A stretch of DNA of 64,000 nt. Source: Theionarchaea archaeon. GTDB taxonomy: Archaea > Methanobacteriota_B > Thermococci > Methanofastidiosales > SZ-28-30. The DNA is taken from assembly GCA_018992685.1 (NCBI GenBank), contig JACVGT010000008.1, positions 32,001 to 96,000 on the forward strand, given 5' to 3'. Of the stretch, positions 34,594 to 41,426 are shown one piece after another; the first letter of the stretch is position 1; each line of letters starts with the position of its first letter. The position numbers were made by a program, and so were the translations under genes. The notes below the pieces were generated by a model, which worked only from the letters and a program-made list of their open reading frames with translations, ran no database searches and was not told where the DNA came from.

Positions 34594-35394
34594 ATGCTCT
34601 CACAGATCATTTTAACCCCCTGGGAAGCCAGGCGGCTGATTGCCAAGGCTGTGGTCCAGCTTCCCCCCGTAAAGCACGCATTACGCCAAGGTATCGTCTG
34701 CATTGCCAGAGGAACCACCACCTCATACATTGTGGAAGAGCTTTCAGGCCCAATCAAGAAGGAGGAGTATTGTATTGGGTGTATTGGCCCTGAAAGACTG
34801 TGTCTGGTTCCAGAAAAGAACAGACTACCAGAAATCGCATACATACATGGAACTCCTCAAGAAATTGCCTCAAAAGATATTGTCAAAGACATGGGATCAG
34901 GAGATGTCTTCATCAAAGGGGCAAATGCTGTTGACCCCGACTTTGAAGCGGGTATCCTGCTGGGAAGTGCTGTGGGCGGAACCATAGGAAGTGCTATTGG
35001 AGCACTATATGCCAAAGGAATTCATTTTGTCATCCCTGTAGGGCTGGAGAAACTGGTTCCTTTCTCAGTGCGGAAAGCCAAAACGTTCACTGGATTCACG
35101 CGAGTAGACTCCTCCATGGGGATGGCCGTGGGATTGTTCCCTGTGGTGGGCACTGTTGTGACAGAAATCCAGGCACTGGAGCAGATGGGTGTGACAGCGG
35201 TACCCATTGCAGCAGGTGGATGCAATGGAGCTGAAGGTGCTTCCATTCTGGCCATCCAGGGAGAAGAAGAACGCATGAAAAAGGTCCTGAAAATCATAGA
35301 CAGCATAAAGGGTGAGCCCCCACTGAGAATGCCCACTGAAGACTGTCAGACCTGTGAACATTCCACCTGCCCCTGGAGAGGACGAGCCAGGTGA
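34594..35394 (+). CDS. Conserved hypothetical protein of anaerobes (NagB/RpiA/CoA-transferase-like fold)
   Basis: LTP.EARRLIAKAV, GTTTSYI.EEL, DVFIKGANAVD, PVGLEK, AAGG..GAEGA, C-terminal CxxC-x3-C. Confidence 0.75.
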   Translation: MLSQIILTPWEARRLIAKAVVQLPPVKHALRQGIVCIARGTTTSYIVEELSGPIKKEEYCIGCIGPERLCLVPEKNRLPEIAYIHGTPQEIASKDIVKDMGSGDVFIKGANAVDPDFEAGILLGSAVGGTIGSAIGALYAKGIHFVIPVGLEKLVPFSVRKAKTFTGFTRVDSSMGMAVGLFPVVGTVVTEIQALEQMGVTAVPIAAGGCNGAEGASILAIQGEEERMKKVLKIIDSIKGEPPLRMPTEDCQTCEHSTCPWRGRAR

Positions 35395-35398
35395 TGAG

Positions 35399-36766
35399 AT
35401 GTCTCTCCAGAAGTTCTTCAGTCCCAAAAGTGTTGCAGTGGTGGGTGCTTCCAGAACCTTCGGGAAGGCAGGAAATGTCATCCTTCTAAACTTGCTTAAT
35501 CTCGGATATGAAGGGAGAATATACCCGGTAAACCCCAGGGCAGACACTATTTTTGAGTTGAAATGTTATCCCACTGTATCTTCCATTCCTGAGGTCGTGG
35601 ATGTGGCAGTCATTGCCACACCATCCATTTTTGTGCCTGAAATCATGAGAGACATTCAAGCCAAGGGAGTGACCAACGTCGTCATTATTTCTTCAGGATT
35701 TTCCGAAGGGAGTGAGGAAGGAAAAAGCCTCCACCAGGAGGTTTTAGCCATAGCTCAGAAGGCACACATTCGCATCATAGGCCCCAACACCACGGGCATC
35801 ACGTCAAGTGAGAGCAAATTCTGTACATCTTTTGTGCCCATCGAGGAGGTACCTCCCGGCAAGGTGGCTTTTGTTGCCCAGACAGGACTGTTCCTGGGGG
35901 TTCTGCTGGAGACCATACTATCAGAAGAACATTTCGGCATTTCCAAGGTGGTGGGCCTGGGGAATAAAATGGATGTGGAGGATTCTGAAGTCCTGGAGTA
36001 CCTGGCCCAGGACGGGGAGACTGAAATCATGTGCTTCTACATTGAAGGACTGAAAAAGGCGCGGAAATTCTATGAAGTCGCCAAGAAAGTCACCCCGAAG
36101 AAGCCTGTCCTGGTGGTGAAGTCAGGGGTCACAGGAGAAGGATCGAAAGCAGCCGTTTCTCATACTGCTTCTCTATCAGGGAATGACCAGTTGTTCTCTG
36201 CCATGTGTCAGCAAGCTGGCATCATTCGGGCTTCTGACCTGGAAGAACTGGTGGAAGCTGCCAAAGCATTTGCATTCCAGCCCTTACCAAAGGGGAAGAG
36301 AACAGCGCTTGTCCACTATACCGGGGCGGGGTGTGTGATGGGAGCAGACAGTATTGTAAGGGAAGGGTTGGAAATGGCCAGTCTTTCAGAAGAGACTCTC
36401 GCTCCTCTCCGTAAGATAACACCTGAATGGCACACCCTCCGGAACCCAGTAGATTTATGGCCATCCATAGAGTCAGCTGGAGCAGACAAAGCGTTTTCCA
36501 CCGTTGTCAAGTCACTCATTGAGGATGACGGTGTGGATGCTGTGGTACTTGCTGTGGGCTGCATGAGGGGATTTCCCCTTGAATGGCCCGAGATGCGGGA
36601 GTTTTATGGAAAAAAACCTGTGCTCATTGCAGTGGAAGGGGACAGGGAACTGGGATTTTCCGCACTTGAAAAGCTGGAAGCACAGAAATTTCCCTGTTTC
36701 AAGAGTGTTCAGAGGGCAATTCGTGCTCTGGGCCACATGGTAGCGTACAGGTCACATTTAAAGTAG
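35399..36766 (+). CDS. acdA: ADP-forming acyl-CoA synthetase alpha subunit
   Basis: FFSPKSVAVVGAS, YPVNP, IIGPNTTG, GLGNKMD, SHTASL phospho-His, NPVDL. Confidence 0.88.
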   Translation: MSLQKFFSPKSVAVVGASRTFGKAGNVILLNLLNLGYEGRIYPVNPRADTIFELKCYPTVSSIPEVVDVAVIATPSIFVPEIMRDIQAKGVTNVVIISSGFSEGSEEGKSLHQEVLAIAQKAHIRIIGPNTTGITSSESKFCTSFVPIEEVPPGKVAFVAQTGLFLGVLLETILSEEHFGISKVVGLGNKMDVEDSEVLEYLAQDGETEIMCFYIEGLKKARKFYEVAKKVTPKKPVLVVKSGVTGEGSKAAVSHTASLSGNDQLFSAMCQQAGIIRASDLEELVEAAKAFAFQPLPKGKRTALVHYTGAGCVMGADSIVREGLEMASLSEETLAPLRKITPEWHTLRNPVDLWPSIESAGADKAFSTVVKSLIEDDGVDAVVLAVGCMRGFPLEWPEMREFYGKKPVLIAVEGDRELGFSALEKLEAQKFPCFKSVQRAIRALGHMVAYRSHLK

Positions 36767-36817
36767 ACCCACCAGGTATGTCCAAGAAGACACGGTGCAG
36801 AATATACCTGGACAGCT

Positions 36818-38152
36818 TTATGGCGTGACTGGCTGTTCTGGCCACGGCTGTCCCCGTGTAGCGCACATCCAGGGATCGGGCATGCACACAGTCCCATAGT
36901 GCTGAAGCACTCTCGCTTTGCAGCCGCCTCTGCATTCCTGGACATGAGAACAGGTTCCGCAAGTCATGCTTTCTGTTGTACACTGCCTGAAAGGCTCGAA
37001 AATTGGACTGTTCATCCAAAGGTACTCCATTGATTCTTCTCTGAGGCTGCCTGCTGTATGCTCAGGACTGCTCAACACAGGACACAGCACCACATCCCCA
37101 CTCGCAGTCACCGTCACCATGGACGTCCCCACCCCGCAGAAAGAGTAGGGTGATTCCGTATTCTGCATTTCTGACGCGAATGTGAGCTCTAAACGTTGAG
37201 GAGTTTTCTCCTCAAAGGTCCGACACTGTTGTGATACCTCTTCACCCATTTCCAGAGGCGGAATGAGATGTTCGTGCTCTGTGCCTCTCCCTGCCCCCAT
37301 GAATCGATCGAAAATCATCTCGCGGACACCTAGATCCACCAGCATCTGGATGACGTTGGATAACTCTCCCACATTTTCTGTGTACACCACGGTATTGGAG
37401 CGGACCGGTATCCCATGGTTGACCAGCCGAGTGATACCTTCTACGGTCTTGTCAAAGGTATCCTTCCCCCTGATCTTCTGGTGGAGTTCTCTCGTACCGT
37501 CAAGACTTACCATGACTTTCTCAGGGTTCAAAGCCTCCAACTGGCACACCGTGTCCTCGGTCAGGAGGATACCATTGGTGAACAGGTTCACCCCAACAGT
37601 ATTATCCACGATATATTCCAGAAGATCGAAGATGTCGCTCCGCAGGAGGGGTTCTCCCCCGGTGACAGCAATGCTCACCACACCCAGAGAAGCCAGTGAG
37701 TCTATTGCAGACATCCAGTCTGCTGTATCCAATTCTTCCCCATGTGATGTACCTGCTTTCTTGTAGCAGTGAATACAGGTCAGGTTACACTTATTGGTTA
37801 CCTCAAGATATGCAATATCAATGGGCCACTCCATCTCACTGCTCTTCATGATGACGGGCACATGCACTGGCTGACTGGAACCGTCCAGAAAATGGAGGTC
37901 ACGCAGGAAATCAATGGACTTTGAAGCCTTGTTCCTCACTCCTCTCTCAGGTTCGCTGTACAGCCCGCACAGTTCCTGTACAAGATCATCAGCTGTCCTT
38001 GTGCCGTCGCATAATACCAGTAACTCCTTTAAATCCTCATTTGCTTTCCCCTGAATTCTCCTCTTCAAATCCTTTACTAGATATTTCCCCCCTTTTTGCT
38101 TCTTGATGACAAGAGAGCCCGAACTCACCAAATACTCTTTTTCATCAGTCAT
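36818..38152 (-). CDS. Radical SAM/SPASM peptide maturase with N-terminal PqqD-like RRE
   Basis: RRE-like LLVLCDGTRTADDLVQELCGLY; CNLTCIHC; TGGEPLL; SPASM FCG...GDVVLCP...CGTC-x5-C-RGGC...DPWMC; GGAGG SD; start overlaps the upstream stop. Confidence 0.92.
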   Translation of the reverse strand: MTDEKEYLVSSGSLVIKKQKGGKYLVKDLKRRIQGKANEDLKELLVLCDGTRTADDLVQELCGLYSEPERGVRNKASKSIDFLRDLHFLDGSSQPVHVPVIMKSSEMEWPIDIAYLEVTNKCNLTCIHCYKKAGTSHGEELDTADWMSAIDSLASLGVVSIAVTGGEPLLRSDIFDLLEYIVDNTVGVNLFTNGILLTEDTVCQLEALNPEKVMVSLDGTRELHQKIRGKDTFDKTVEGITRLVNHGIPVRSNTVVYTENVGELSNVIQMLVDLGVREMIFDRFMGAGRGTEHEHLIPPLEMGEEVSQQCRTFEEKTPQRLELTFASEMQNTESPYSFCGVGTSMVTVTASGDVVLCPVLSSPEHTAGSLREESMEYLWMNSPIFEPFRQCTTESMTCGTCSHVQECRGGCKARVLQHYGTVCMPDPWMCATRGQPWPEQPVTP

Positions 38153-39197
38153 ATCCATCCTCCCAGCTTGCTGCAGCCAGCATTTGAGACCACGGGATAG
38201 CCTCATACGGATATGATACCACCTGTTCATCAAAGACCTTCCTGCAGAGGGCAAGAAACCCACGGTGCTGAGGACTGCCGAAATATTCCTGGACCACATC
38301 CATCAACGACTTCTCCCTGATGTTCCCCATGTACAGACGGGGGTTGAGACAGCTGTCAACAGGCACCACATTCCCGTCAGGCAGGATGATGAGCTCCCGG
38401 GGATCATTTTCAGCATGTCTGTGGCATTCTGAGCCAAAGCATGCATATGCATTACAGGGGTGTTCAGTCAGGACCTTCTTGCTGTGGATTCCCATGTATA
38501 CGCTGGTACTGGCCAGGTACTGCCCGTACAGCCTCGTGGTGAATTCAGCCAGTTCATCAATTTCCTTTTCAGACAGACAGGAAGATGCAATTTCCCGGGC
38601 TCTTCCTCCCACGAAGAGGGGCTCCAGTTTCAGACTCTCTGCTCCCAGGTCAGAGGCTGTCTCGGCAATCCATTCTATATATGGAAAGCTCTTCTTCGTT
38701 ACCGTAAACTGGAGGGCAAAAGGGACATCTTTCTTCCTGAGAGCTTCAATACCCCTCATAGCACTTTGAAATGCACCCTTCATCCCCCTGAAGGTATCAT
38801 GGTACTCCTGAGGACCATCGACGCTGATGAGAACACACCTCACCAGGTCCCGCACTTTTTCTGCCAACTCCTCTGTGATGAGCGTCCCATTGGAAACGAA
38901 ATCGGGTGAGAACCCTTCCTCAACTGCTACTTCCAGGATACGGGTAAGGTCTGGATGCAGGGTAGGTTCTCCTCCTGAAAATGCTATTCGGGTGGTGTTC
39001 AGCTTCTTCATGTCCCTGACTATGGACAAGACCTCTTCTGCAGTGAACTGGTGCACGGGGACGTTCTGAGCATTGATGAAGCAGTGCTGACACGAGAGGT
39101 TACACCAGTCAGTGATATGAAAGAGAAACGTCACTTCCTCTTCAAAAAACCTCAGGGCATGCTGGTGCACACCCTGAGAATCAATCGGGGTTGTCAT
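38145..39197 (-). CDS. Radical SAM enzyme with atypical SPASM/twitch-like C-terminus
   Basis: CNLSCQHC, FSGGEP, SNG, ISVDGP..YHD.FRG; GGTGG SD right after the precursor stop. Confidence 0.9.
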   Translation of the reverse strand: MTTPIDSQGVHQHALRFFEEEVTFLFHITDWCNLSCQHCFINAQNVPVHQFTAEEVLSIVRDMKKLNTTRIAFSGGEPTLHPDLTRILEVAVEEGFSPDFVSNGTLITEELAEKVRDLVRCVLISVDGPQEYHDTFRGMKGAFQSAMRGIEALRKKDVPFALQFTVTKKSFPYIEWIAETASDLGAESLKLEPLFVGGRAREIASSCLSEKEIDELAEFTTRLYGQYLASTSVYMGIHSKKVLTEHPCNAYACFGSECHRHAENDPRELIILPDGNVVPVDSCLNPRLYMGNIREKSLMDVVQEYFGSPQHRGFLALCRKVFDEQVVSYPYEAIPWSQMLAAASWEDGYD

Positions 39198-39209
39198 GTA
39201 CAATCCACC

Positions 39210-39302
39210 TTAGTATGCAGGCAGCGAAGGCTGCGGCACGATCTTGGTCGCAACAGACTGTATCTTCAGTGCCATGAATTCAGGCATAAATACGTCTTTC
39301 AT
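39210..39302 (-). CDS. Putative RiPP precursor peptide 1 (30 aa) MKDVFMPEFMALKIQSVATKIVPQPSLPAY
   Basis: GAGGTGA SD, own TATA box, stop 12 nt before the rSAM ATG, paralog upstream. Confidence 0.85.
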   Translation of the reverse strand: MKDVFMPEFMALKIQSVATKIVPQPSLPAY

Positions 39303-39333
39303 GGTCTCACCTCGGTGAGGTATATTCTGAGAA

Positions 39334-39347
39334 CTTATAAATGTTTT
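39334..39347 (-). promoter_or_regulatory. BRE/TATA promoter of precursor 1-rSAM operon
   Basis: AAAACA-TTTATAAG on the minus strand. Confidence 0.7.
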
Positions 39348-39463
39348 GTAGATTGAACATATGTCAGAGATATGAGTAAAAAAAACACCTTCTCCACATG
39401 TCATACGGTCCAGAATAAAAACTCATGAGCAGGGAACAAAGATCGACATACATGCCCAACCCT

Positions 39464-39482
39464 CAGAAAAAAAAGAAAGAAA
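39464..39482 (-). terminator. Oligo-T terminator after precursor 2
   Basis: TTTCTTTCTTTTTTTTCTG on the minus strand about 30 nt after the stop. Confidence 0.55.
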
Positions 39483-39513
39483 TGGACTGCTACCCTGATC
39501 ACTGGAGAAGAAC

Positions 39514-39603
39514 TCACGGCACAATAATCGAAGGAATAGGCCATTGCTTGATAATGATAGCCTGTTCGTTGTCTACCAAGAACTCGGGTTGGAACTTCTT
39601 CAT
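39514..39603 (-). CDS. Putative RiPP precursor peptide 2 (29 aa) MKKFQPEFLVDNEQAIIIKQWPIPSIIVP
   Basis: Perfect GGAGGTGA SD (39610-39617), own TATA box, aligns with precursor 1; not in ORF track. Confidence 0.85.
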   Translation of the reverse strand: MKKFQPEFLVDNEQAIIIKQWPIPSIIVP

Positions 39604-39636
39604 TGAATCTCACCTCCCTCCTCTTTCTCACCCTGT

Positions 39637-39651
39637 CTTTATAAATGTTTC
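39637..39651 (-). promoter_or_regulatory. BRE/TATA promoter of precursor 2
   Basis: GAAACA-TTTATAAAG; 12 bp identical to the precursor 1 promoter. Confidence 0.7.
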
Positions 39652-39810
39652 TGCTTCTAATATACTTTTCATATTCTTGCGTAAAAAAGGTATCATTCTG
39701 GACAGGTGTAAATAATAGACTGGAGAATGGGTCAAACACGGTACTTACTGTCAATAAAAAGAGAGGGCAGAATACAAAAGGTTTATAAACCTCGTGGCGA
39801 ACATGTCTCC

Positions 39811-39996
39811 ATGCCAAAGAGAAAACGTGCAGAAGGTGGTGCACTCCCTCCTACTGGTGCAGGACTGATTCGTTACTTTGACGAGGACACCAGAGGATTC
39901 AAACTGAAGCCTCTCCACATTATCATTGCAGCTGCGGCTGTCGTTGTCCTCGAGATTGTTCTGAGACTTGTGGGTGTGGACATTCTGGGGTTCTAG
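39811..39996 (+). CDS. secG: Preprotein translocase subunit Sec61beta
   Basis: LPPTGAGLIRYFDED...KLKP..I plus one TM. Confidence 0.93.
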   Translation: MPKRKRAEGGALPPTGAGLIRYFDEDTRGFKLKPLHIIIAAAAVVVLEIVLRLVGVDILGF

Positions 39997-41426
39997 ATCT
40001 GATTCCAGGCAAGGACTGGACTTCGTGCAGCTTTTACCTCATCCAGTCTTCCCACCGCCGTGTTGTGTGGAGCTTCTCTCACCATGTGTGGAGTGGTATA
40101 GCATTCATTCTTGATTTGTATCATAACTTCGATGAATCTGTCAAGCTCCTCTTTTGATTCTGATTCTGTGGGTTCAATCATCAATGCTTCGTGGACAATC
40201 AGAGGGAAATAAATGGTCGGTGCGTGAATTCCATAGTCCAGGAGCCGCCTTGCTATGTCCAGCGCCCTGCAGTCAGTCTCTCTCTTGATCTTCTCGCAGG
40301 ACAGGACTATTTCATGCTTTCTCAGGGGCTGATACGGCATTTCGTAATGGTCCCTGAGGTTCTGGGCCAGGTAATTGGCATTTAACACGGCCACCTGGGA
40401 GGCTGTCCTGATATCTGAACCCATGATAACAGCATAGATATAGGCCTTGACTGCTACCTGGAAGTTCCCATAGAATCCATGGACTTTCCCGATGGTCATG
40501 GGGAGATCATTATCAAAATAGTAGTTCTCTCCGTTGTAGTCTACCAAGGGCACAGGAAGATAGTCCTTGAGCTTTTCACATACTCCCACCGGGCCTGATC
40601 CAGGTCCTCCCCCTCCGTGAGGAGTTGAAAATGTTTTGTGCAGGTTAAAATGGACAATGTCAAATCCCATGTCTCCAGGACGACAGATGCCCGCAATCGC
40701 ATTGAGGTTTGCACCATCGTAGTATAGGAGCCCGCCTGCATCATGGACAGTGTCGGCAATCTGTATGATGTCCTTCTCAAAGATACCAAGAGTATTGGGG
40801 TTGGTGAGCATGAGCCCTGCAGTTCTTTCTGTGACCGCACTCTTGAGAGCTTCGAGGTCCACCGTACCCTGGTCATTGGAGGGAATTTCCACCACATCAA
40901 AGCCTGCCATATGGGCTGAGGCAGGGTTTGTCCCATGAGCAGAATCGGGAACCACCATTTCTGTCCGTCCTTTCTGGCACGCTTTTATGATGAGAGCACC
41001 CGTCAGCTCTCCTCCTGCTCCTGCTGCGGGCTGAAGGGTAACGGCAGCCGTTCCCGAAATGAGTTTGAGATACTCCTGCAGGTTGTACAGAACTTCAAGG
41101 CAGCCCTGGATGGTGGACTCATCCTGCAGAGGATGGAATCCTGAAAAGAGTGTGGACAATTCTTCTGTTATCTTGGGATTGTACTTCATGGTACAGGACC
41201 CCAGAGGGTAGGTACCTGTGTCCACCCCAAAATTCATTTCAGATAGCCTGGTATAGTGGCGCACAACATCCACTTCAGATAGTTCGGGAAGTGGCAGTTC
41301 CTCTCGTCGAAGAGACTGAGGTATGGAAACTGGCTCTCCAAGGGGCTCAGGGAGTGAGTACCCTGTCCTCCCGGCAACTGACTTTTCTTTCAGCAAGGGT
41401 TCACAAAACGTCGCCTGCCTATACAT
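39993..41426 (-). CDS. gcvPB: Glycine dehydrogenase (decarboxylating) subunit 2
   Basis: YPLGSCTMKYNPK, SAHGTNPASA, NLHKTFSTPHGGGGPG, LMIEPTESE. Confidence 0.96.
   Translation of the reverse strand: MYRQATFCEPLLKEKSVAGRTGYSLPEPLGEPVSIPQSLRREELPLPELSEVDVVRHYTRLSEMNFGVDTGTYPLGSCTMKYNPKITEELSTLFSGFHPLQDESTIQGCLEVLYNLQEYLKLISGTAAVTLQPAAGAGGELTGALIIKACQKGRTEMVVPDSAHGTNPASAHMAGFDVVEIPSNDQGTVDLEALKSAVTERTAGLMLTNPNTLGIFEKDIIQIADTVHDAGGLLYYDGANLNAIAGICRPGDMGFDIVHFNLHKTFSTPHGGGGPGSGPVGVCEKLKDYLPVPLVDYNGENYYFDNDLPMTIGKVHGFYGNFQVAVKAYIYAVIMGSDIRTASQVAVLNANYLAQNLRDHYEMPYQPLRKHEIVLSCEKIKRETDCRALDIARRLLDYGIHAPTIYFPLIVHEALMIEPTESESKEELDRFIEVMIQIKNECYTTPHMVREAPHNTAVGRLDEVKAARSPVLAWNQI

Follow-up and report, generated by a model that had tools for sequence, protein, structure and literature searches.

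Here we describe four adjacent genes on the minus strand of a 64,000-nucleotide stretch of contig JACVGT010000008.1 (hereafter the window), which comes from a 3.03-Mb Theionarchaeon genome (G000). In minus-strand order these are pep2 and pep1, which encode two short peptides, followed by rSAM-A and rSAM-B, which encode two radical S-adenosylmethionine (SAM) enzymes. We conclude, with a probability of about three in four, that they form an operon for radical-SAM-modified peptides of the RiPP type (ribosomally synthesised and post-translationally modified peptides). A first-pass annotation had proposed such a cluster from the DNA letters, with two paralogous precursors of no recognised class, a PqqD-like RiPP recognition element (RRE) at the N-terminus of rSAM-B and a full set of SPASM cysteines in the same enzyme. 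The gene order, the peptide lengths, the gap of exactly 12 nucleotides between the pep1 stop codon and the rSAM-A start codon and the overlap between the two enzyme genes (14 nucleotides) were all found where it had placed them. The RiPP interpretation itself is supported in silico by the peptides, the RRE and a model of the enzyme with its peptide. The anatomy of the locus, its conservation, the boundaries of the families and the predicted docking were worked out by computation. Translation of the peptides, their modification, the chemistry and the role of the product are what we infer.

The two peptides have in common the block MK..F.PEF, then a Gln, and then K..P.PS. When the whole genome was translated in six frames, the combined motif F.PEF...P.PS occurred twice, both times at this locus. 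In the same translation the single motifs F.PEF and K..P.PS occurred 42 and 80 times, respectively. The peptide arrangement exceeds chance. A profile was built from six peptides of this genome and two others of the same genus (G001 and G002) and run against 1,835,955,588 proteins. This recovered 11 further peptides at E<=1e-3, and 19 members of the family are known in all. Residues F5, P7, P23, P25 and S26 are invariant in the 19 peptides, and the distance from F5 to P23 is 17 residues in every one. Conservation is less strict at F9 (18 peptides), Q15 (17), E8 (16) and K20 (16). Cys is absent from 16 of the peptides and sits at a non-conserved position in the remaining three, Trp22 is found in 6 of 19, and the C-terminal residue is variable (Y, P, W, F, K, D, G or E), being Tyr in six peptides including pep1. 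Fourteen family peptides were compared with Pfam and NCBIfam and none gave a match at E<=10, in line with the proposal that the precursors belong to no recognised class. Just one of the six genome peptides is present in a collection of 15 billion proteins, the other five being uncalled as genes. The family therefore seems to be under-sampled by gene callers, which miss these peptides because they are only 29–30 residues long.

Some variation was seen in the peptide genes. Reads of four DNA runs contain the strain of the window, a second, G001-like strain and one further variant at position 39526 in pep2, where the contig of two of the runs (X9 and X11) has C for A at a depth of 3.3–4.3. By codon reading, this would change Ile26 of pep2 to Met and would add no new peptide type. 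Two extra type-2 peptide genes occur in G002, at C38:253-342(-) and C35:13693-13782(-) (L184 and L185). They are nearly identical, have an upstream region of the GAGGTGAGA type and lie on contigs in which a search at E<=1e-20 found no rSAM-B-like gene. From this context, they appear to be orphan precursor copies.

We then compared the locus with that of related genomes. Among the 41 relatives searched, an rSAM-B orthologue was present only in G001 and G002. The order pep2, pep1, rSAM-A, rSAM-B is identical in both, and hence in all three readable loci of the genus, and both peptide types are present in each cluster. The expectation that similar peptides would be found near homologues of the enzymes was thus borne out in both of the other readable genomes, and within the genus a putative short precursor gene lies beside the enzyme and is conserved with it. 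The flanks in G001 are the same as in the window (GcvP genes and an acyl-CoA synthetase). In G002 the downstream genes differ and encode a BcrAD/BadFG-type activase and a dehydratase fragment, so that only the four genes travel together. The rSAM-B copy of G001 (L021:5308-5440, G001:C28) is broken by a run of X/N and appears as two pieces in searches; we read this run as a gap in the assembly or as masking of bases within an intact gene.

Relatives of both enzymes are also found in metagenomic proteins. In the protein collection, rSAM-A has 35 related clusters at 44–88% identity, after which identity drops to 31%, and rSAM-B has about 34 clusters at 39% identity or more, with another group at 36–38%. 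One protein that is 78% identical to rSAM-B bears the source name Theionarchaea archaeon. Eleven rSAM-A/rSAM-B pairs have an equal longest contig (6119, 8424, 8116, 10393, 23875, 63618, 31003, 47969, 2834, 4497 and 22225). The longest contig of peptides P0245 and P0247 (63618) equals that of rSAM-B P0026 and rSAM-A P0141, and that of peptide P0248 (38667) equals that of rSAM-B P0017. By this equality, these two cases give indirect support for the co-location of peptides and enzymes.

Contigs were scanned with the rSAM-B alignment as well, using back-translated patterns that were too generic in both scans. Among the 80 genome-contig matches listed, two are at the level of an orthologue, namely L023 (79% identity; the G001 contig) and L024 (37%). 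Among the 80 metagenome-contig matches listed, none exceeds 40% identity on its best segment, and full-length identities are 23–32%. L024 is a bacterial metagenome-assembled genome in which the relative of rSAM-B (37% identical) occurs without rSAM-A. Downstream of it, at L024:2191-2361(+), is an open reading frame (ORF) of 56 residues with a Shine–Dalgarno sequence. The N-terminal half of this ORF contains F-x-P-x-F, its C-terminus is rich in Cys, and a HEAT-repeat/cyclophilin protein comes next. Enzymes of the L024 type (P0035, P0039, P0042 and P0043) are sister in our tree to the archaeal group that bears rSAM-A. This one readable locus gives a hint that the leader motif may predate the Cys-free core, and that the presence of rSAM-A may be tied to the PxPS core.

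The domain structure of rSAM-B is that of a peptide maturase. It scores above the Pfam cut-offs for both Radical_SAM (93.9 bits) and SPASM (31.8 bits, cut-off 21.5). Across 43 sequences, C124, C128 and C131 of the CxxxCxxC motif are invariant, as are C341, G354, C359, C400, C403, C409 and C413 in the SPASM domain, and C432 is nearly so. The SPASM motif is Cx9-15Gx4C ... CxxCx5Cx3C ... C, and on this alignment rSAM-B carries all seven of its cysteines, as had been claimed. The proposed RRE is harder to see in the window copy, where PqqD (PF05402) scores 16.7 bits, under the cut-off of 23.4, but it matches 32 of the 43 orthologues at E<=0.01 (best 2.5e-7) and is supported by the model fold. In the AlphaFold model (pLDDT, predicted local distance difference test, 89.6), the N-terminal domain has the order β-β-β-α-α-α (3–4 strands, then three helices), with strands at residues 16–20, 26–30 and 35–39 and helices at 41–49, 56–66 and 71–87. 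This predicted layout is that of a PqqD-like RRE. The best structural matches of rSAM-B are SkfB (E 4.6e-23), SuiB, PqqE, CteB and TigE, with SuiB and CteB aligning over about 440–454 columns. In a sequence-profile comparison, SkfB scored 135.4 bits and CteB 113.6 bits over residues 52–436.

A complex of rSAM-B with pep1 was modelled. The median run scored 0.77 as compared with 0.02 for the best control, runs agreed in at least 53% of contacts and partner pLDDT was at least 67. In the calibration of this tool, 58 of 80 solved complexes and 2 of 110 mismatched pairs attained the mark. The best-defined contacts are those of peptide residues 5–12, the FxPEF leader, with enzyme residues 37–43 (strand β3 of the RRE) and helices 63–89. 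Peptide residues 18–28 lie near Y117, residues 255–258, 279–284 and 305–332 and the SPASM cysteines C341, C359, C409 and C413, and the model has the PxPS core lying where the barrel faces the SPASM domain. The predicted pose is the canonical RRE mode. Part of the score may reflect likeness to known structures, because RRE–leader complexes such as SuiB–SuiA have been solved. These computed results support the idea that the leader binds the RRE of rSAM-B; RRE binding was one of the points by which the first-pass annotation had proposed to test its reading.

By comparison, rSAM-A is a reduced enzyme. It has no N-terminal domain and hence no RRE, and in Pfam it scores 84.3 bits for Radical_SAM and 20.8 for SPASM, just under the cut-off of 21.5. 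In 35 sequences, C32, C36 and C39 are invariant, as are C248, C253 and C258 toward the C-terminus, and C318 is nearly invariant. When rSAM-A is aligned to CteB by profile, C248 and C258 match the first auxiliary-cluster cysteines of CteB, but the Cys at the end of the hairpin is replaced by Val and the CxxCx5Cx3C block is absent. On this alignment rSAM-A lacks a full SPASM domain, and we call its C-terminal domain reduced, or Twitch-like. The closest folds to its model (pLDDT 90.7) are SkfB, SuiB, CteB and the anaerobic sulfatase-maturating enzyme (anSME), all of which are peptide maturases. In the Protein Atlas, rSAM-A gave generic radical SAM clusters only. A tree was made of 73 proteins, comprising both enzymes of the window, 13 of the 35 rSAM-A orthologues, 14 of the closest relatives of rSAM-B and 44 next-best matches. 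All rSAM-A orthologues in the tree group in a single clade with a support of 100 (SH-aLRT, the Shimodaira–Hasegawa-like approximate likelihood ratio test) and a stem of 1.23. Because of long branches near this clade its sister group is uncertain, although the clade itself is not.

Neither enzyme reached a curated NCBIfam cut-off among the best 25 families listed for each. For rSAM-B the scores were 171.6 bits for MftC (cut-off 265), 148.4 for StsB (625), 144.5 for NirJ2 (500), 143.5 for AhbD (500) and 135.3 for PqqE (381.35). For rSAM-A they were 126 for AhbD (500), 107.5 for NirJ1 (650) and 107.3 for AhbC (650), and these matches cover the SAM core only (residues ~25–217). Several known systems could be set aside. 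Membership of the AhbC/AhbD/NirJ group, which by the first-pass annotation would have told against a RiPP cluster, is rejected by scores of 103.9–126 bits for rSAM-A and 117–144.5 bits for rSAM-B against cut-offs of 500–650, and by the separate clade of rSAM-A. A sactipeptide or ranthipeptide system would need conserved Cys donors in the core, and the peptides have none. Mycofactocin (TIGR03962), whose precursor MftA ends in Val-Tyr, fails on its score and because this ending is found in none of the 19 peptides. Pyrroloquinoline quinone (PQQ; TIGR02109) fails on its score. Streptide maturation (StrB/SuiB) uses a Lys and Trp pair in the core and does not fit a family with Trp22 in only 6 of 19 peptides. 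For anSME (TIGR03942), rSAM-A scored 73.2 bits, under the cut-off of 349.45, and the family is not among the best 25 listed for rSAM-B.

The coordinates of the genes and of their putative expression signals are listed in Table 1. Two copies of AAACATTTATAA sit 304 nucleotides apart, one before each peptide gene, and these elements, of the TATA/BRE type (BRE, transcription factor B recognition element), are invariant or kept in the alignment of the three genomes of the genus. In the same alignment, GAGGTGAGA sits 4–5 nucleotides ahead of each peptide ATG. From this arrangement, pep2 may be a separate unit, with pep1 probably read together with rSAM-A and rSAM-B. The lengths of rSAM-B orthologues (424–461 residues) fit the start codon chosen for this gene. 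A scan for sigma-70 promoters and intrinsic terminators, which is unsuited to an archaeon, gave counts at the level of shuffled sequence.

Table 1. Genes and putative signals of the pep2–rSAM-B locus (positions in the window).
Feature	Positions	Strand	Description
TATA/BRE-like element of pep2	39639..39650	-	AAACATTTATAA on the minus strand; kept in G001 and G002; putative promoter
Shine–Dalgarno of pep2	39608..39616	-	GAGGTGAGA; ends 4 nt ahead of ATG 39603; invariant in three species
pep2	39514..39603	-	Putative type 2 precursor peptide, 29 aa + stop, MKKFQPEFLVDNEQAIIIKQWPIPSIIVP
T-rich tract 3' of pep2	39465..39480	-	Possible archaeal terminator, as read from the sequence
TATA/BRE-like element of pep1	39335..39346	-	Exact 12-nt repeat of the pep2 element; putative promoter
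Shine–Dalgarno of pep1	39305..39313	-	GAGGTGAGA; invariant in three species
pep1	39210..39302	-	Putative type 1 precursor peptide, 30 aa + stop, MKDVFMPEFMALKIQSVATKIVPQPSLPAY; ATG 39302, stop 39210-39212; final 30 codons of a 64-aa ORF, 39210-39404(-)
rSAM-A	38145..39197	-	350 aa; ATG 39197, stop 38145; radical SAM enzyme without RRE
rSAM-B	36818..38158	-	446 aa; ATG 38158, stop 36818; RRE (~residues 9-87) + barrel + SPASM

These data suggest the following scheme. Each paralogous precursor would be expressed from its own TATA element and strong Shine–Dalgarno sequence and would have three parts, namely the leader MKxxFxPEF, a spacer whose length is fixed and the invariant PxPS core. The leader would dock as an extra β-strand on β3 of the rSAM-B RRE, and rSAM-B would pass K-x-x-P-x-P-S through the space that separates the SAM barrel from the two SPASM clusters, where a 5'-deoxyadenosyl radical would abstract hydrogen from one of the core residues. 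A cross-link of the C-C or C-O type may result, or else an oxidation, around Ser26, Pro23 or Pro25, with Lys20 or Gln15 as a possible partner. The product would not be a thioether, because the core has no conserved Cys. A cross-link that involves Ser26, oxidation of Ser26, epimerisation in the Ile/Val stretch and a reaction at proline are the candidates, none of which is likely when taken singly. It seems most likely that rSAM-A would add a second modification to the same peptides, given its lack of an RRE, its single Cys set of the auxiliary-cluster type and the overlap of its gene with that of rSAM-B.

Several observations weigh against this operon interpretation. The 14 sequencing runs listed for the locus include no RNA run, so translation and modification are both inferred, as is the proposed reaction at Ser26, Pro23 or Pro25. 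Between G000 and G001, pep1 differs in its 30 codons by 4 synonymous and 8 non-synonymous changes, and all 8 fall within codons 13–24, the variable middle of the peptide. The enzyme is narrowly distributed, with a phylum-wide search at E<=1e-60 finding rSAM-B orthologues in 3 of 133 genomes, all of this genus, and in none of the other 130. No gene for a protease, transporter or immunity protein was found in the three readable loci, and the flanking genes (GcvP, Sec61β and ADP-forming acyl-CoA synthetase) are housekeeping genes. The placement of the metagenomic rSAM-A/rSAM-B pairs on the same contigs is indirect, being read from equal longest contigs.

Some of these points bear on a different role, in which pep1 and pep2 would give rise to a cofactor made from peptide, or to a small modified protein that stays inside the cell, as in PQQ, mycofactocin or QhpC-like systems, rather than to a secreted product. 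The absence of a protease, an exporter and an immunity gene from the three loci, together with neighbours from core metabolism, keeps such a role under consideration, and it is consistent with MftC and PqqE being high-scoring curated families for rSAM-B (MftC the best) and with the C-terminal Tyr of 6 of the 19 peptides, including pep1. However, both of those scores are under their cut-offs, the C-terminal residue is otherwise variable and no gene like MftB/D/E/F or PqqB/C lies in the cluster. Two diverged peptide types per genome, together with the two G002 orphans, are more typical of diversifying precursors, and by our own reasoning invariant Pro, Pro and Ser residues are not obvious precursors of a redox cofactor. 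We consider this role unlikely.

Action on a non-peptide, tetrapyrrole-type substrate, as for AhbC, AhbD and NirJ, would make the small ORFs incidental or regulatory upstream ORFs. In favor of this, the best NCBIfam matches of rSAM-A are AhbD, NirJ1/NirJ2 and AhbC, and its nearest non-orthologous relatives are named 12,18-didecarboxysiroheme deacetylase in their source. By contrast, the scores are far under the cut-offs and confined to the SAM core, the rSAM-A clade is separate from the clades with that name (AhbC) and from those named heme b synthase, and the structural neighbours are peptide maturases. In addition, rSAM-B has an RRE on which the peptide docks in the model, and the G002 peptide genes that lie away from the enzymes are unlike a regulatory upstream ORF. 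Such a substrate is thus highly improbable. Least probable of all is that the small ORFs are untranslated and the conserved blocks are promoters or a small RNA, which would suit the five uncalled peptides and the lack of a listed RNA run but is opposed by the invariant GAGGTGAGA before each ATG, by changes at third positions in pep2 that keep its residues (13 synonymous and 5 non-synonymous differences from G001 in 29 codons), by a reading frame and invariant residues kept in 19 peptides and by the lack of an Rfam match at E<=1 in 36600-40100.

The operon interpretation therefore remains the one we prefer, and it can be set against other genes of the window and the genus. Next to the pep2 promoter region, and head-to-head with it, is a small Sec61β gene (39808-39996(+), Pfam 50.1 bits). 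On the other side of the cluster, at 34594-36766(+), a 266-residue ORF with no Pfam family and a 470-residue ORF for a CoA-binding, ADP-forming acyl-CoA synthetase overlap in different frames. Their G001 counterpart is a single ORF of 676 residues, of which residues 1–201 and 236–674 match. From these sequences, the two forms may differ through a frameshift or through assembly, or else the genes may really have been split or fused.

Genes of the RRE-rSAM/SPASM type are strongly expanded in the genus. Matches to rSAM-B at E<=1e-20 number 17 in G000, 27 in G001 and 22 in G002, as compared with 0–3 in each of the other 38 relatives, and three of these genes are in tandem at G000:C3:57322-61362. 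A second family of ORFs in G000, 29–32 residues long with a GGAGG site and the ending W-K-E-x-K-x-x-C-L, occurs at C3:57029(+), C19:17841(-) and C7:100449(-). Each of these lies just upstream of an rSAM-B-like paralogue (C3:57322-58458, C19:16432-17673 and C7:98792-100009, respectively). Other rSAM-B paralogues in G000 adjoin different short ORFs, for example at C7:40809 and C17:9218. Judging by this gene order, the short ORFs beside the paralogues may mark further peptide-modification clusters.

What we describe adds a peptide family and an rSAM-A clade, both new, to a kind of system that is well known. Because the enzyme type is familiar and genome mining regularly turns up further RiPP families, we regard it as a good lead, not a surprise. 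It might also be a new RiPP class, in which an RRE-SPASM enzyme and a Twitch-like partner would carry out a Cys-independent reaction that is undescribed for radical SAM enzymes, for example a cross-link or an oxidation at the Ser or Pro of PxPS; we hold this to be possible, at somewhat less than even odds. On this view, peptides of types 1 and 2 might work together as the two components of one product. If true, the genus would be an unrecognised peptide-modifying lineage, with 17–27 matches per genome, several of which have their own families of peptides of about 30 residues. These are uncultured archaea of marine sediment, and the chemistry is probably new. The locus offers a compact archaeal test system with two 30-residue substrates, two enzymes, a clear leader motif, fixed spacing and an invariant PxPS core free of Cys. 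Whatever modification came to light would probably widen the range of reactions known for SPASM and Twitch enzymes. It would also open a view of the natural products, or cofactors, that an uncultured archaeon of the sediment makes from peptides. To our knowledge, nearly all radical SAM RiPPs characterised so far are bacterial. Among the papers listed in our literature searches, none concerns this peptide family by title or abstract, and supplementary tables of archaeal biosynthetic gene clusters could list the cluster generically. The single archaeal study of an RRE-rSAM-SPASM enzyme that we found in the literature dates from 2026 and, in the part of its text available, describes thioethers in a Cys-rich protein (PMC13692751).

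Compared with characterised enzymes, rSAM-B is built like CteB, SuiB and SkfB, with the same three domains (RRE, SAM barrel and SPASM), a precursor directly upstream and a leader that is predicted to lie on strand β3 of the RRE. CteB (of the sactipeptide/ranthipeptide type) and SkfB differ in that the peptides studied here have no conserved core Cys, which excludes thioether chemistry of that kind for the family. SuiB differs in its Lys-Trp streptide link. The Lys-x-Trp pair occurs in only 6 of the 19 peptides, so streptide-type chemistry is not the common reaction of the family.

MftC and PqqE act on short, Cys-independent peptides. MftC gives rSAM-B its best curated-family score, over residues 110–429, and PqqE is among its top PDB matches. 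Mycofactocin and PQQ biosynthesis rely on a free-standing RRE protein (MftB and PqqD, respectively), whereas in rSAM-B the RRE is fused. The peptides here also have no conserved C-terminal Val-Tyr or Glu...Tyr pair, and the cluster has no accessory genes of either pathway. HxsB/HxsC and ScmE/ScmF resemble this locus in having two adjacent radical SAM genes with short peptides, and ScmE, ScmF and HxsB are among the NCBIfam matches listed (61–132 bits, cut-offs 370–400). However, the motifs of their peptides differ from FxPEF...PxPS, and the Cys set of rSAM-A is a reduced one that falls short of a full SPASM domain. The archaeal comparison is CrpC of Methanococcus voltae, an RRE-rSAM-SPASM enzyme that, as far as the accessible portion of the paper describes it, makes thioethers in a Cys-rich protein encoded alongside (PMC13692751). 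Going by that portion, the two systems have in common an archaeal enzyme with RRE, radical SAM and SPASM domains and an adjacent ribosomal substrate; the substrate of CrpC is Cys-rich, whereas the peptides of the family described here, 29–38 residues in their short forms, are essentially Cys-free.

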